Shown piece by piece: positions 32,250 through 42,078 of a DNA stretch of 64,000 bases. The position numbers were made by a program, and so were the translations under genes. Each line of letters begins with the position of its first letter. The first letter of the stretch is position 1. Location of the stretch: the NCBI GenBank assembly GCA_038207335.1, contig JBBQZX010000021.1:32001-96000 (forward strand), in the 5' to 3' direction. The notes under the pieces were generated by a model. That model ran no database searches. It had not been told where the DNA came from and worked only from the letters and a program-made list of their open reading frames with translations. The DNA is from Chthoniobacterales bacterium. Lineage in GTDB: Bacteria > Verrucomicrobiota > Verrucomicrobiia > Chthoniobacterales > Chthoniobacteraceae.

Positions 32250-34271
32250 CTAGGCGCGGCGGTCGCGGATGGAGGCCAGGATGTCGGCGATGACTTCGGC
32301 GCGGGGGCGGGCGCCCTGAGGGCCTTTGCCGTGGATGCGGACGCTGACGACGCCGGTTTCGAGGTCGCGCGGGCCGAGGATAAGCATGTGGTGGACTTTC
32401 TGCATCTCGGCGTTGGCGATCTTGGCTTTAATCGGGTCACGGGTCTCGTCGATCTCGGCGCGGACGCCGTGGCTGCGGAGTTCCTTGACGTAGTCCTTTG
32501 CGAAAAAGACCGAGGCCTCGTCGTCGCCTAAGGTGAGGACGCGGACCTGCAGGGGGGCGAGCCAGAGGGGGAAATTCCCCGCGTAGTGCTCGATGAGGAA
32601 GCCGATGAAGCGCTCGTGGGTGCCGAGGGGGGCGCGGTGGATGCAGAGGGGGGTGGCGTCGGTATTCTCGCGGGTCTTGTAGTGGAGGCCGAAGCGGGCG
32701 GGGACGGCGAAATCGACCTGGTTGGTGGCGAGAGTGAACTCTTTGCCGATGACGTTCCAAATCTGGATGTCGATCTTCGGCCCGTAGAAGGCGGCTTCGT
32801 TGGGCACTTCGATGAAGGGCGCGCCGCTGGCGATGAGGACGTCGCGGACCATCTTCTCGGTCTTGAGCCAGAGGTCGGACTGATCGACGTATTTCTTGCC
32901 GAGCTCCTCGGGGCTGTGGGTGCTGAAGCGGAACTGGTAGCGATCGACGCCGAAGATGGCGAAGTATTTGAGGTACATCTGGTTGACGGCCTCGAACTCG
33001 GCGGCGAACTGCTCCTCGGTGCAGTAGATGTGGGCGTCGTTCATCTGCATGGCGCGCACGCGCATGAGCCCGAAGAGTTCGCCCGACTGCTCGTAGCGGT
33101 AGCACGTCCCATATTCCGCCAGCCGCAAAGGCAGGTCGCGATAGCTGCGCGGCACCGCCCCGAAGAGCTTGTGGTGGTGCGGGCAGTTCATGGCTTTGAG
33201 GTAGTAGCGGTCGCCTCGCACCAAGCGTTGGAACGCCGCGTTGTGGGTTTGGTATTCCGCCCACGTTGCCGCTATCTCAGGAGGAAAAGTCCCGGCTTGC
33301 TCGGCTCTTGATACGACTTCATCGACGGGGCCTTCTTCCCCAGCGGGAATCCAATCCCTTACTTTCACAAACGCGGCCCGTGCTTTGTGACTGAGTTCAT
33401 CGGACTGCGCCGCGTTCTCATTTAACATCATCGGCGGAAACATGCTGTCCGCGTAGTAAGGCAGGTGCCCGCTGGTGAGATACATGTTCTCCCGCGCGAG
33501 GTGCGGGGTGCGGACGCGGTCGTAGCCGGCGGCGAACTCCGTCTCTTTGGCGAGCTTTTCCAACTCCTCGATGAGGACGGTGCCGCGCGGGAGCCAGAGC
33601 GGGAGGCCGGGGCCGACATCATCGTCGAAGCAGAAGAGCTCCATCTCGCGGCCGAGCTTGCGGTGGTCGCGCTTTTTCGCCTCCTCGAGCATGGTGAAAT
33701 ACTCGTCGAGCAGGGTCTTGTTCTTGAAGGCGGTACCGTAGATGCGCTGGAGCTGGGGGTTCTTTTCGTCGCCCTTGTAGTAGGCGCTGGCGACGTGCGT
33801 GAGCCGGAAGGCGCCGATATTTCCCGTGCGCATGACGTGGGGCCCGGCGCAGAGGTCGGTGAAGTCGCCGTTGCGGAAGATGGAGATTTCCTCGCCCTCG
33901 GGGATGCCCTGGATGATGTCGAGCTTGAAAGTGGAGGGGGTGCCGCGCGTGGCGAGGGCGGCGAGCTCGCCGCGATAGGCCATGGCGAGGGCATCGGCGC
34001 GGCTGAGGGTCTGCTTTTCAAAGGTGTGGTTGGCCTTGATCTCCTTTTTCATCTCGGCCTCGATGGCGGGGAAGTCCTCGGGGGTGATGCGGTGGGAGGG
34101 GAGGTCGAGGTCGTAGTAGAAGCCGGCCTCGACGGGGGGGCCGGCGGCGAATTGGGCATCCGGCCAGATGCGGAGGATGGCGGTGGCGAGGACGTGGGCG
34201 GCGCTGTGGCGGAGCCGCTCGAGGTCGGTCATCTGCGCGCGTTGTTCGAGGGTTTTGCGTTCGTCGGACAT
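32250..34271 (-). CDS. thrS: Threonine--tRNA ligase with a large insertion
   Basis: LRHSAAH, DLCAGPH, KRDHRKLG, MNCPHH, GLMRVR, AFYGPKID, IHRAPLGTHERF. Confidence 0.97.
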   Translation of the reverse strand: MSDERKTLEQRAQMTDLERLRHSAAHVLATAILRIWPDAQFAAGPPVEAGFYYDLDLPSHRITPEDFPAIEAEMKKEIKANHTFEKQTLSRADALAMAYRGELAALATRGTPSTFKLDIIQGIPEGEEISIFRNGDFTDLCAGPHVMRTGNIGAFRLTHVASAYYKGDEKNPQLQRIYGTAFKNKTLLDEYFTMLEEAKKRDHRKLGREMELFCFDDDVGPGLPLWLPRGTVLIEELEKLAKETEFAAGYDRVRTPHLARENMYLTSGHLPYYADSMFPPMMLNENAAQSDELSHKARAAFVKVRDWIPAGEEGPVDEVVSRAEQAGTFPPEIAATWAEYQTHNAAFQRLVRGDRYYLKAMNCPHHHKLFGAVPRSYRDLPLRLAEYGTCYRYEQSGELFGLMRVRAMQMNDAHIYCTEEQFAAEFEAVNQMYLKYFAIFGVDRYQFRFSTHSPEELGKKYVDQSDLWLKTEKMVRDVLIASGAPFIEVPNEAAFYGPKIDIQIWNVIGKEFTLATNQVDFAVPARFGLHYKTRENTDATPLCIHRAPLGTHERFIGFLIEHYAGNFPLWLAPLQVRVLTLGDDEASVFFAKDYVKELRSHGVRAEIDETRDPIKAKIANAEMQKVHHMLILGPRDLETGVVSVRIHGKGPQGARPRAEVIADILASIRDRRA

Positions 34272-36169: not shown

Positions 36170-36374
36170 GGGGCGCCGCCGTGATTTCAAGTCTATCGCA
36201 CAGCCCTTTCCGCGCTGCGACCATCCTTTTGCCCCAGCCATGTGCGCATTTCGCGCCTATCGCCGCGCGGCGCTCACTTTCGTCCCTGCACCATGTCGTG
36301 TCGCCTATGGCGCGCGCTGCCGTGCGGTGACGGATGCAACACAACCAAAACCGAAAACCACACCACACGAAACT

Positions 36375-37949
36375 ATGCAGAAATCATTGAAACGCACTTT
36401 GCTCCCGGCCCTCGCGGCGGCGATGTGTTGGCTCACCCTCGGGGATGCCCCGCTCCACGCGCAGGATGCCGCCGCTCCGGCAGCGCCCGTCGCCGCGGAG
36501 CCGACAGTCGCCGCACCGGATGCCGCACCTGCCGCAGTCGCTCCGGCGGAAGCCGCGCCTGCTGCGCCGACGGACCCGATCACCGACATCAAGAACGCCT
36601 CCAGTGCGATGCGCACCGGCCTCGACACCGTCTGGGTGCTCGTCACCGCGATGCTTGTCTTCTGGATGAACGCCGGCTTCGCCCTCGTCGAGAGCGGCTT
36701 GTGCCAATCCAAAAACTGCGTCAACATCCTGTTCAAGAACTTCATCGTCTTCGCCTGTTCGACGGTGTCGTTCTGGGTCATCGGATGGGGCATCATGTTT
36801 GGCGATGGGACGCCATTCATGGGCACATCGGGGCTCTGGTTCGTCGGGGGTGCCGATAATTCGCCCGCGCTCGGCCACGACTACATGTCGATGAATCCGT
36901 TCTCCGGCGAGGAATACAAAGGCGTCTATGGCGCGATCAACTGGACCCCGGTTCCGCTGTGGGCGAAGTTTTTCTTCCAGCTCGTCTTCGCCGGCACCGC
37001 CGCAACGATCGTCTCCGGTGCAGTCGCCGAGCGTATCAAGTTCCACAGCTTCATGGTCTTCAGCTTCATCCTGGTCGCGGTGTTCTACCCGATCACCGGT
37101 CACTGGATCTGGGGCGGCGGTCTCCTCGGCGCGAATAACTTCCGCGACTTCGCAGGTTCGACTGTCGTGCATTCCGTCGGCGGCTGGGCAGCGCTCGCAG
37201 GCGTCATCGTCCTCGGGCCACGGCGCGGGAAATTCCGCGATGGGAAAGTGCATCCGATCCCCGGTCACAACATGACCTCCGCCGCTCTCGGCGTGCTCAT
37301 CCTGTGGCTCGGCTGGTTCGGCTTCAACCCCGGCTCCACGATGTCCGCAGGCGACGGTAAGGCGATCGCCCACGTCCTCGTGAACACGAACATTGCAGCC
37401 GCCACCGGCGCGCTCTTCGCGCTCATCACCGCCTGGACTTTGCTGAAAAAGCCGGATTTCTCGATGGTTCTCAATGGCTGTCTCGCGGGCCTCGTCGCCA
37501 TCACGGCGCCGTGCGCTTTCACCACGATCACCTCGGGTGCGATCATCGGCGCCATTGCCGGCGTCGTCGTCGTCGTGGCGGTCATCTTCTTCGATAAGAT
37601 CAAGCTCGACGACCCGGTGGGCGCCCTCTCGGTCCATCTCGTCTGTGGCGTGTGGGGCACCCTCGCGCTCGGGCTTTTCTACGACAAGGACGTCACCGCC
37701 AACATCGCCGCGCTCCCGCCAAATGCGGCCGACGCAGCGGGCTGGACGGCAATGAGCCAGACGATGGTGCAGCTCAAGGGGATCCTCTACTGCGGTGGAT
37801 TCACCTTCATCGCGTCGCTCATCGTTTGGTTCATCATCAAGGCCGTCTTCGGTCTGCGTGTGAGCGCTGAGGAAGAGATCGAAGGTCTCGACATCGGCGA
37901 GCACGGCAACGAAGCGTACCCGAACTTCCAACCCGCGAGCCGCGGCTAA
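36375..37949 (+). CDS. amtB: Ammonium transporter 1
   Basis: MNAGFALVESG, FFFQLVFAGT, SGAVAER, DFAGSTVVH, WFGFN, DDPVGALSVH, GLDIGEHG. Confidence 0.95.
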   Translation: MQKSLKRTLLPALAAAMCWLTLGDAPLHAQDAAAPAAPVAAEPTVAAPDAAPAAVAPAEAAPAAPTDPITDIKNASSAMRTGLDTVWVLVTAMLVFWMNAGFALVESGLCQSKNCVNILFKNFIVFACSTVSFWVIGWGIMFGDGTPFMGTSGLWFVGGADNSPALGHDYMSMNPFSGEEYKGVYGAINWTPVPLWAKFFFQLVFAGTAATIVSGAVAERIKFHSFMVFSFILVAVFYPITGHWIWGGGLLGANNFRDFAGSTVVHSVGGWAALAGVIVLGPRRGKFRDGKVHPIPGHNMTSAALGVLILWLGWFGFNPGSTMSAGDGKAIAHVLVNTNIAAATGALFALITAWTLLKKPDFSMVLNGCLAGLVAITAPCAFTTITSGAIIGAIAGVVVVVAVIFFDKIKLDDPVGALSVHLVCGVWGTLALGLFYDKDVTANIAALPPNAADAAGWTAMSQTMVQLKGILYCGGFTFIASLIVWFIIKAVFGLRVSAEEEIEGLDIGEHGNEAYPNFQPASRG

Positions 37950-37960
37950 GAAACGGCATC

Positions 37961-37997
37961 GCCCGGTCCCGGCTGCCATCGCGCAGCCGGGCCGGGT
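37961..37997 (+). other. GC-rich intercistronic hairpin
   Basis: cccggtcccggctgc/gcagccgggccggg. Confidence 0.55.
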
Positions 37998-38006
37998 ATT
38001 TCCTAA

Positions 38007-38354
<348 letters not shown>

Positions 38355-38368
38355 AACGCAGAACTGTC

Positions 38369-38407
38369 CGCGCGGGCAGCAGCGCTTCGGCGTTCGCTGC
38401 CCGTGCG
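38369..38407 (+). other. Intercistronic hairpin with cUUCGg loop
   Basis: cgcgcgggcagc agcgc-ttcg-gcgtt cgctgcccgtgcg. Confidence 0.55.
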
Positions 38408-38456
38408 TGGCGTTCCGCACTTTTCCCCGAATCCATAACTCCCTTACTTCCCTAAA

Positions 38457-38783
38457 ATGAACCCACTCCTTATCCTTCTTGTCTTCGCCTCCGTCGCCGT
38501 CTTTGCCGGCATGGGCGCGCATCTTCAAAAAGCTCGCACGGCGAAAATCTTTCACATCGTCGGCGGTGCCCTGGGCATGACCGCCTCCATCGCTTTCGCC
38601 CTCACGCAGCACAAGCTCTCGTGGGCATTCATCGTCCCGTTCGTATTCGCGATGATCTTCGCCGGACGCGCGCTCGGTGACTGGGCGCGCGGCCGCGTCA
38701 GCTTCCAGCCCCCCGCGCAGCTCTTCTTTCTCGCCGGGACCCTTTCGCTTCTCGGAGCACTGAGCACGTTGCTCGTCCGCTGA
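38457..38783 (+). CDS. Small four-TM membrane protein
   Basis: Four hydrophobic segments. Confidence 0.7.
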   Translation: MNPLLILLVFASVAVFAGMGAHLQKARTAKIFHIVGGALGMTASIAFALTQHKLSWAFIVPFVFAMIFAGRALGDWARGRVSFQPPAQLFFLAGTLSLLGALSTLLVR

Positions 38784-38794
38784 ATCTTCCAGGC

Positions 38795-40069
38795 GTGATT
38801 GCTTCCATCGTCGCGGACCCAAATCCGCTGATGATCCTCCCATTCGGCGCGATGCTCCTGTGCATCGCGATCATGCCGCTTTTCGCGCCGAAATTCTGGG
38901 AGCACAACCTCCAGAAAGTCTCCATCGGCCTCGGCGCGATCAGCGTCATCTATTACCTCGCCGTCCTGCACGATGGCTGGCGCATGGCCGAAGTCGCGCA
39001 CGACTACGCAAGCTTCATCCTTTTTATCGGCGCGCTTTTCGTCATCGCCGGCGGCATCCACATCGGGGTGAAAGGCGAAGCGCAGCCGGGCCACAACACG
39101 TCGTTCCTGCTGATCGGCGCGGTGCTCGCGAATCTTGTCGGCACCACCGGCGCATCGATGCTCCTCATCCGTCCGTGGATTCGCATGAACCGCTACCGCT
39201 TCACGCATTTCCACACAGTATTTTTCATCTTCGCAGTCAGCAACGTCGGCGGCTGCCTCACTCCCGTCGGCGATCCGCCGCTCTTTCTTGGCTATTTGAG
39301 GGGCGTGCCTTTCTGGTGGATCACGGAGAAAACCTGGCCCGCGTGGCTCTTCGCCGTCGGCGCGCTGCTCGCGATTTTCTACATCGTCGATCGGCGGAAT
39401 TTTCACAAAGTCCCCAAGCCGATTCGTGACGCCGAGCCGCACGAGAAATTCAAAATCACCGGAATCAAAAATGTCGGCTGGCTCGCACTCGCGCTCGGTG
39501 CGGTCTTCATCAAGAGCCCGCAGGGATTGCGTGAAGTCATCATGGCCGGCACAGCGATCGGCTCCTACTTCACCACGTCGAAAGCCGTCCACGAGTCGAA
39601 CCATTTCAACTTTGCTCCGATCAAGGAAGTCGCGTGGCTCTTCCTCGGAATCTTCGCCACGATGGTGCCCGCGCTCGACTATCTCGAGCTCCACGCCACC
39701 ACGCTCGGCATCGCGCATCCGGGCCAATTCTACTGGCTCAGCGGCGCCCTCTCCGGCGTGCTCGATAACGCGCCGACCTACCTGACATTCCTCGCCGCCG
39801 CATTCGGCATCAAAGGTCTGAATCTCAACGACGCCGCGCACATGACGAAGTTCCTCGCCGAGCACGGCATTTACGTGGTCGCCATCTCGCTCGGCTCCGT
39901 GTTCTTCGGCGCGATGACCTACATCGGCAACGGCCCAAACTTCATGGTGAAATCCATCTGCGACCACGCCGGCGTCCACACGCCCAGCTTCTTCAACTAC
40001 ATTATCCGCTACTCCGTGCCCGTGCTGCTCCCCATCTTCGCGGCAGTCGCGTGGCTGATGTTGCGGTAA
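38795..40069 (+). CDS. Putative Na+/H+ antiporter (ion-transporter superfamily)
   Basis: GTTGASMLLIRP, SNVGGCLTPVGDPPLFLG, LDNAPTY, TYIGNGPNFMVK. Confidence 0.85.
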   Translation: MIASIVADPNPLMILPFGAMLLCIAIMPLFAPKFWEHNLQKVSIGLGAISVIYYLAVLHDGWRMAEVAHDYASFILFIGALFVIAGGIHIGVKGEAQPGHNTSFLLIGAVLANLVGTTGASMLLIRPWIRMNRYRFTHFHTVFFIFAVSNVGGCLTPVGDPPLFLGYLRGVPFWWITEKTWPAWLFAVGALLAIFYIVDRRNFHKVPKPIRDAEPHEKFKITGIKNVGWLALALGAVFIKSPQGLREVIMAGTAIGSYFTTSKAVHESNHFNFAPIKEVAWLFLGIFATMVPALDYLELHATTLGIAHPGQFYWLSGALSGVLDNAPTYLTFLAAAFGIKGLNLNDAAHMTKFLAEHGIYVVAISLGSVFFGAMTYIGNGPNFMVKSICDHAGVHTPSFFNYIIRYSVPVLLPIFAAVAWLMLR

Positions 40070-40121
40070 CGCAAGCCGCCGTCTCGCGACAGGACAGGCT
40101 CAAGCCGGAGGCTTGCGCTAC
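40066..40121. repeat. GTAG-type REP-like palindromic doublet (degenerate left arm)
   Basis: gtaacgcaagccgccgtctcg ... caagccggaggcttgcgctac. Confidence 0.6.
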
Positions 40122-40166
40122 GGCGATCTCCCCGCTAACCCTCCCGCTCGACATCCCCACATCCTC

Positions 40167-42078
<1,912 letters not shown>

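Follow-up and report, generated by a model that had tools for sequence, protein, structure and literature searches.

What is a segment of 74 foreign-looking codons doing inside an essential enzyme of translation? The core enzymes of translation pass for markers that change slowly and are inherited vertically, and the segment in question lies in the threonyl-tRNA synthetase gene (thrS) of a bacterium of the Chthoniobacteraceae, within the 64,000-nucleotide stretch of DNA that was analyzed here as a whole (the window). From a comparison of this site among relatives we favor, on balance, the view that the segment is one version of a swappable acidic appendage of ThrRS, predicted to have three helices, exchanged by recombination and possibly acting as a variable surface shield. 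No account of swappable synthetase cassettes, or of RAYT transposases in frame within synthetases, was found in the literature covered (full-text searches, judged from titles and the starts of abstracts, with few subscription journals); insertion modules, mosaic genes and intragenic mobile DNA are known kinds, and it is the pattern of cassette turnover that is undescribed.

The insert in thrS and its predicted fold

The gene is the only one for a threonyl-tRNA synthetase in this 5.17-Mb genome (one tblastn match), which is labeled G000 among the compared relatives. The first-pass annotation of the locus had reported an in-frame segment of atypical composition between the MFPPM and YYLKAMNC motifs, and this is borne out (Table 1), the GC and GC3 of the insert being 0.577 and 0.58 and those of the remaining thrS 0.646 and 0.90. 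The normal loop had been put at 6–8 residues, which proved too short: the empty loop in the relatives has about 11–21 residues, and the net gain is thus around 60 amino acids. When the whole genome was scanned for codon-foreign segments inside genes, the insert came 8th of 179, in between segments of AlaRS and LeuRS, which occupy ranks 7 and 9; the gene names are assigned from sequence motifs, to which a PF00133 match is added in the case of LeuRS. The insert is present as a single copy in the genome. The codon at 33183–33185, inside the downstream flank, is presumably that of the zinc-binding cysteine.

Table 1. Position of the thrS insert, its flanks and predicted helices, and of the metG segment, in window coordinates.
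Feature	Position	Strand	Remarks
thrS	32250..34271	-	673 aa, start codon inferred; Pfam tRNA-synt_2b, HGTP_anticodon, tRNA_SAD
Variable cassette	33207..33428	-	74 codons; net charge -4; GC3 0.58; relatives differ at the site
Predicted helix 1	33351..33413	-	AlphaFold2, H12-32 with the insert alone; H86-109 in the catalytic-domain model
Predicted short middle helix, strongly amphipathic	33294..33326	-	AlphaFold2, insert alone
Predicted helix 3, returning to the strand that precedes the MNCP motif	33213..33281	-	AlphaFold2
Conserved downstream flank, likely recombination arm	33145..33206	-	62 nt identical to G038 thrS
Upstream flank, also conserved, in the ordering-loop region; likely arm of recombination	33429..33473	-	adjoining divergence patches in different-cassette pairs
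metG second hypervariable codon-foreign segment	1103..1318	+	72 aa; 40-76 aa over 30 loci

An assembly chimera had been named as one outcome that would undo this description, and none was seen: three mismatch-free contigs of run X1 tile positions 33023–33207, 33178–33516 and 33487–33560+, and the one that holds the insert has a depth of 23.6 and zero variants listed within it. The left junction is bridged by 88 letters and the right one by only 29, in one X1 contig, the rule of the tool being 31; as X1 may be the source sample itself, these contigs are not independent support. A second allele in the likely source run, suspected from the contig end at 33207, was set aside as none could be read. 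No RNA holder was listed for the locus.

Inteins begin with Cys or Ser and end in His-Asn, followed by Cys, Ser or Thr. As had been stated, the insert has no such termini, its first residues being Met-Leu-Asn, its last Gly-Asp-Arg and the next one Tyr; it was further rejected as an intein on the basis that no intein family in Pfam was matched at E 1 and that its model is all-helical. Inteins do resemble the insert in interrupting an essential gene in frame, next to a conserved catalytic motif, and in varying in presence among relatives, whereas the insert lacks splicing termini and an endonuclease, is too short and is predicted to stay in the mature protein.

The insert had been thought to form a helical hairpin; the AlphaFold2 model has three helices and not a plain hairpin. 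Within a catalytic-domain model, built from an alignment devoid of insert homologues and poor in its core (mean pLDDT 62), the insert has pLDDT values of 83–93, and when modeled alone with 16 family members in the alignment the value is 86. A sequence-profile search of solved structures with the insert gave nothing below E 0.077, and the whole catalytic model, compared by fold, matched nothing but ThrRS and other class II folds. In the alignment with the S. aureus ThrRS (1NYQ), the slot corresponds to a short variable loop before the MNCP motif.

The small-interface beta-hairpin of class II synthetases is described, in the available text of PMC10810186, as a dimer interface in which three fixed insertions are nested. 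We infer that the slot is the tip of this hairpin, so that the catalytic core would be left intact; the name of the hairpin is that used in PMC10810186. The modules of PheRS-A, of SepRS and of SerRS-A treated there are helical, have 28–77 aa and, by alignment, would occupy the same structural site. However, those modules are conserved and family-defining, a fixed module being, in the text available, one that is conserved in over half of the family members and inherited with the enzyme (PMC10810186), whereas the ThrRS slot varies among near-identical genes and its contents include a transposase.

Content of the slot among relatives and its exchange

The search covered 81 relatives and then all 151 genomes of the family, from which 130 stretches were fetched (some twice) and 115 loops were typed. 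Helical-type inserts of 45–135 aa, all of them acidic, fill 58 of these loops; 33 are empty, with 12–22 aa, 16 carry RAYT cassettes of 212–297 aa, seven are short or hold REP remnants and one is broken. The term helical-type refers to composition in the other cassettes, the insert of the window being the one that was folded. Seven ThrRS that belong to another type and differ in the flank (G050, G054, G057, G058, G068, G071 and G076) and five incomplete or interrupted loci (G009, G016, G037, G111 and G151) were left out, and since fetching favored carriers these counts are not frequencies, except for genus g22, all of whose 25 matches were fetched and in which the 24 typed loops are all filled. 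Some of the relatives' proteins are named Chthoniobacteraceae in their sources.

Within the genus of G000, five loops are empty, two hold helical inserts, one holds a RAYT and one is broken, and in the thrS backbone tree the sister of G000 is G005, a RAYT carrier. Indeed, among 15 pairs of genes within 6% backbone divergence, the loops are at most 25% identical in 12; in the pair formed by G172 (RAYT) and G165 (87 aa) the backbones are 1.3% apart. Different loops in near-identical backbones indicate that the insert is not a lineage signature, and the fixed, vertically inherited signature that had been named as the other refuting outcome is thus ruled out. A fixed class II insertion module was likewise rejected, as the 58 helical-type cassettes form 21 sequence groups and 12 of the 15 close pairs differ. 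The five typed loops of genus g15 are all empty, and the existence of whole empty genera shows that the cassette is dispensable. The GC3 of the cassette is under that of its flanks in 55 of the 58 cases (medians of 0.57 and 0.82). Net acidity is seen in all 58 cassettes, compared to 57% of 3107 background windows, and equally in each of the 34 loops that do not exceed 22 aa; acidity being common to the empty loops, it reflects a constraint of the site and not a function of the cassette.

Three further observations concern ThrRS genes of relatives. Short loops in thrS of G112, G116, G127 and G035 resemble single REP arms or REP doublets, as after transposase loss. The ThrRS of another type found in other families of the order (L022, L065–L070) have in the same loop a conserved insert of their own, with a Cys-x-Cys pair. 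In G151 (L097:1292–2398) the C-terminal half of ThrRS starts with what is apparently the last cassette helix and has unrelated genes upstream; this half gene may be either a split enzyme or a truncated copy.

Homology among cassettes was assessed by global alignment, in which the insert scores z 6.7 with the G120 cassette and z 4.6 with that of G038 (0 of 300 shuffles), while none of 500 reversed controls reached z 4. Single linkage at z of at least 5 joins 18 of the 58 cassettes into one family, and a 14-member profile gave 18 matches, all in ThrRS. Profiles built from other members without G120 or G038 give the insert 1.7 bits, against 4.2–4.5 for decoys, so that its place in the family is a remote one, supported by pairwise scores under single linkage. 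As judged from these scores, the insert belongs, at some distance, to a rapidly evolving family that was met with in ThrRS only. A search for homologues of the insert alone returned only itself among 154 candidates, and a repetitive 684-aa protein with E 1e-4 to the insert was taken as a chance match. The ESM Atlas gave no usable match, and three other searches were negative, each of them weak evidence: for a stand-alone form of the family among 450 candidates of 37–160 aa, for relatives of the insert in metagenome contigs and phage genomes, and for matches of the family in PHROGs (0 of 14 members). A donor of the cassette was not found.

Close cassette copies are under purifying selection. 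In seven close g22 copies dN/dS is 0.09, equal to that of the backbone, some of whose values are inflated by truncated loci; two other cassette groups have 0.22–0.24, and the cassettes of G000 and G120 give 0.44, with dS near saturation.

How the slot comes to be exchanged is suggested by its flanks. In the 12 pairs with different cassettes, the mismatch is 8.5% in the 20 upstream codons versus 3.3% far away, and in the three pairs sharing a loop it is 2.2% versus 4.9%; the pattern fits donor flanks having been brought in with the cassette. On the other side, thrS of G000 shares a run of 62 identical bases, counted from the right junction, with that of G038, which is of another genus, the overall identity being 88%. 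Identical runs of at least 40 nt from the right junction are found for 35 of the 693 pairs of carriers from different genera, for 1 of the 260 pairs of a carrier with an empty gene and for 0 of 25 empty-empty pairs; neither here nor in the close-pair comparisons are the genome pairs independent. As long identical runs also occur elsewhere in thrS, the junction cannot be taken as the sole point of crossover, and carriers appear to exchange longer tracts of thrS too. In 27-genome trees, recG keeps four genera monophyletic whereas thrS breaks them and places G000 and G005 among other genera, although an AU test on thrS did not reject monophyly of genus g1 (p 0.095). An exact search with 50 nt of flank retrieved three metagenome contigs with two other cassettes; such a search selects for identity, and it is thus not counted as evidence of recombination. 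Altogether, the slot is probably exchanged by homologous recombination without a dedicated recombinase. Flagellin hypervariable domains and mosaic genes also have a variable central module that is exchanged via conserved flanks; ThrRS, unlike these, is an essential cytoplasmic enzyme.

The RAYT allele and the slots of other genes

Each of the 16 RAYT cassettes of thrS retains its HUH and Tyr motifs, and two of the three scanned pass the PF01797 cut-off. Inverted arms of 43–56 nt were found in the three examined, and GTAG lies in the left arm of 13 of the 16. The RAYT allele of the relatives thus has the motifs and REP arms of a REPtron, with a putative cleavage activity. The subfamily is present in 23 of 61 searched genomes, and 29 of the 30 RAYT loci that were read are in frame in host genes: 7 in ThrRS, 10 in AlaRS, 11 in RecG and one in a PriA-like gene, names which we assign from sequence motifs plus matches to G000 genes. 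Members of the subfamily with REP arms (L139–L162, in genomes within G005–G170) occupy one fixed site per host gene. In the RAYT tree, copies group according to the host gene (8 changes, versus 18.7 when shuffled), suggesting that the subfamily has passed from allele to allele, with a small number of jumps from one site to another. G000 itself has no match to the subfamily at E 1e-30 and has related REP doublets; one of these, an inverted doublet at C5:197925–198069, is in frame in a 1055-codon ORF and resembles the arms of the relatives' RAYT cassettes.

The insert had also been proposed as a possible residue of a selfish element. A selfish element, the RAYT with its REPs, does fill the same slot in 16 of the 115 loops; as for the insert itself, the proposal is not sustained, as it has no REP-like arms and no above-threshold family match, and its relatives in close copies are under purifying selection. 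Its identification as a REPtron was rejected both for the domain, there being no HUH-Y1, i.e. no PF01797 match at that place of the genome, and for the arms, there being just two imperfect inverted pairs of 11–14 nt and one 10-nt direct pair. A palindromic element of the Rickettsia type or an intragenic MITE was rejected as well, since the insert is single copy and has no long inverted repeat. REPtrons with GTAG REPs (PF01797), as presented in the available text of PMC8266576 and PMC6006769, have their likeness in the HUH-Y1 domain that 16 relatives carry at the slot; unlike them, the slot RAYTs are translated in frame within essential genes, and the window insert is no REPtron. A survey of Y1 transposases, in the text available, set aside proteins of unexpected length, which it took for fusions or errors, and its supplements may list such fusions (PMC6006769). 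Intragenic REPs and Rickettsia palindromic elements also put foreign DNA in frame into housekeeping genes, tRNA synthetases included, REPs of this kind being frequent in the verrucomicrobium Opitutus terrae (PMC3733652, available text). Those elements are, however, short multi-copy palindromes that code for 20–30 aa, while the insert is a single copy without repeat arms, and a selected domain that is predicted to fold.

A recurrent cassette process in synthetases had been postulated, and the varied contents of the ThrRS loop agree with it, as does the variation of the AlaRS and MetRS sites in the family. The metG cassette that had been cited in this connection could be upheld in part: the segment, presumably in the anticodon-binding region, has 72 aa versus 40 in the shortest relatives, with a GC3 of 0.58 versus 0.91 upstream. 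We have compared AlaRS and RecG in 30 hand-picked genomes, a set in which thrS carriers are over-represented. At the site that the RAYT uses in AlaRS there is a non-RAYT segment of at least 44 aa in 14 of 25 typed loci (91 aa in G000), whereas the RecG slot has a foreign domain in none of 25, its longest non-RAYT filler being a low-complexity one of 50 aa. The RAYT is found in both genes and domains are not found in RecG, so that access of the RAYT is insufficient for foreign filling; this favors a pressure on the slots that would be specific to synthetases, as judged against the thin background of a single control gene. No convincing homology was found between AlaRS and ThrRS cassettes (best z 5.5 in 754 local comparisons, with 25 shuffles each and no reversed control).

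Other synthetase genes of G000 also have unusual internal segments. In alaS (C3:60997–64653, minus strand) there are two inserts, one long and of low complexity and the other, of 91 aa and codon-foreign, at the RAYT slot, which in relatives is empty or filled with a RAYT or with other domains. LeuRS (C7:7677–10802), GlyRS (C13, near 100735–100986) and ValRS (C2:155562–158564) likewise contain internal segments that are codon-foreign or of low complexity.

Candidate functions of the cassette

The function that we consider likeliest, and put forward tentatively, is that of a variable surface shield under frequency-dependent selection. According to this reading, the window segment would be one allele among many of an in-frame ThrRS slot; cassettes would be swapped between related bacteria by homologous recombination through the conserved flanks, and each allele would be kept folded while rare alleles are favored. 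Phage proteins or toxins that attach to the synthetase or its tRNA might then be blocked or decoyed by the appendage, a role of which the evasion of phages or toxins proposed in the first-pass annotation would be one form. A shield is suggested by the fact that each allele is conserved within itself, that alleles replace one another between near-identical hosts, and that they are rarely lost in carrier clades and are confined to synthetases. Some toxins are known to phosphorylate synthetases (PMC7029023), and tRNA-Thr-directed toxins appear to be described; neither case informs on the ThrRS slot.

Close behind ranks the reading in which the cassette is a tolerated passenger, itself a somewhat doubtful one. 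The tip of the hairpin would accept any insert that is in frame, foldable and acidic, alleles would turn over by recombination and drift, and purifying selection would only guard an essential enzyme from misfolding. The stability of empty alleles in several genera agrees with this, as do the REP remnants and low-complexity fillers found in the same slot; also, in-frame REPs in genes, those of tRNA synthetases included, are regarded as possibly neutral in the available text of PMC3733652. However, a mere passenger accounts poorly for a cassette dN/dS equal to that of the catalytic backbone in one group, for the lack of a single empty allele in the 24 typed g22 loops despite frequent swaps, and for a RecG slot which takes RAYTs and REP remnants and yet holds no foreign domain in 25 loci.

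A turnover driven by the RAYT is improbable. The transposase would nick single-stranded DNA at REPs and so elicit gene conversion or the capture of foreign DNA at the slot, the helical cassettes being either captured pieces or replacement alleles immune to cutting. TnpA-REP does cleave and strand-transfer single-stranded REP DNA in vitro (PMC8266576, available text), and the in-frame position of 29 of 30 loci, the retention of HUH and Tyr motifs by 16 thrS copies out of 16 and the clustering of the tree by host gene speak for it. Against it, the window insert is devoid of REP-like arms in a genome lacking a subfamily match at E 1e-30, RecG slots with a RAYT history hold no captured domains, and the cassettes form ThrRS-only families instead of being random genomic fragments. 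Still less probable is a structural or self-recognition module, in which two appendages would pack across the dimer axis and stabilize the homodimer or prevent mixed dimers with an incoming ThrRS. The strongly amphipathic middle helix would suit it, and an archaeal-type SerRS insertion at the dimer-interface hairpin is listed with a dimerization role in the available text of PMC10810186; a fixed role nevertheless predicts otherwise than near-identical enzymes with different cassettes, a 200-aa transposase or nothing, and the cassettes are all acidic. That the insert is a fixed lineage signature, an assembly artefact or an intein is hardly credible, as the exact sequence being known solely from this assembly and the 29-letter bridge at the right junction are countered by distant homologues at the same site in other genera, by sister genomes that differ, by mismatch-free contigs tiling the region and by the lack of intein termini or family matches.

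Returning to the variable shield, a wider version of it is possible, and we regard it as speculative: the synthetase slots of the Chthoniobacteraceae (ThrRS, AlaRS, MetRS and probably others) would be dedicated variable sites that carry interchangeable armor against translation-directed effectors of phages or toxins, drawn from a pool of fast-evolving domains shared across genera, with a RAYT lineage specialized for in-frame life within essential genes hitch-hiking on the exchange or helping to drive it. In either version, a surface loop of ThrRS that turns over faster than the surrounding silent sites, with alleles under purifying selection, has the pattern of a conflict system placed inside an essential cytoplasmic enzyme. 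If antagonists drive the turnover, the cassettes point to unknown effectors that target synthetases and provide matched natural alleles. The intact RAYTs translated within ThrRS, AlaRS and RecG offer a new handle on RAYT persistence, and neither thrS nor alaS can safely serve as a phylogenetic marker for this family.

Elsewhere in the window, positions 36240–41696 hold two gene pairs, in each of which a PII-like gene follows the first member; from the translations, we take the first members to be ammonium-transporter-like and the second PII-like.
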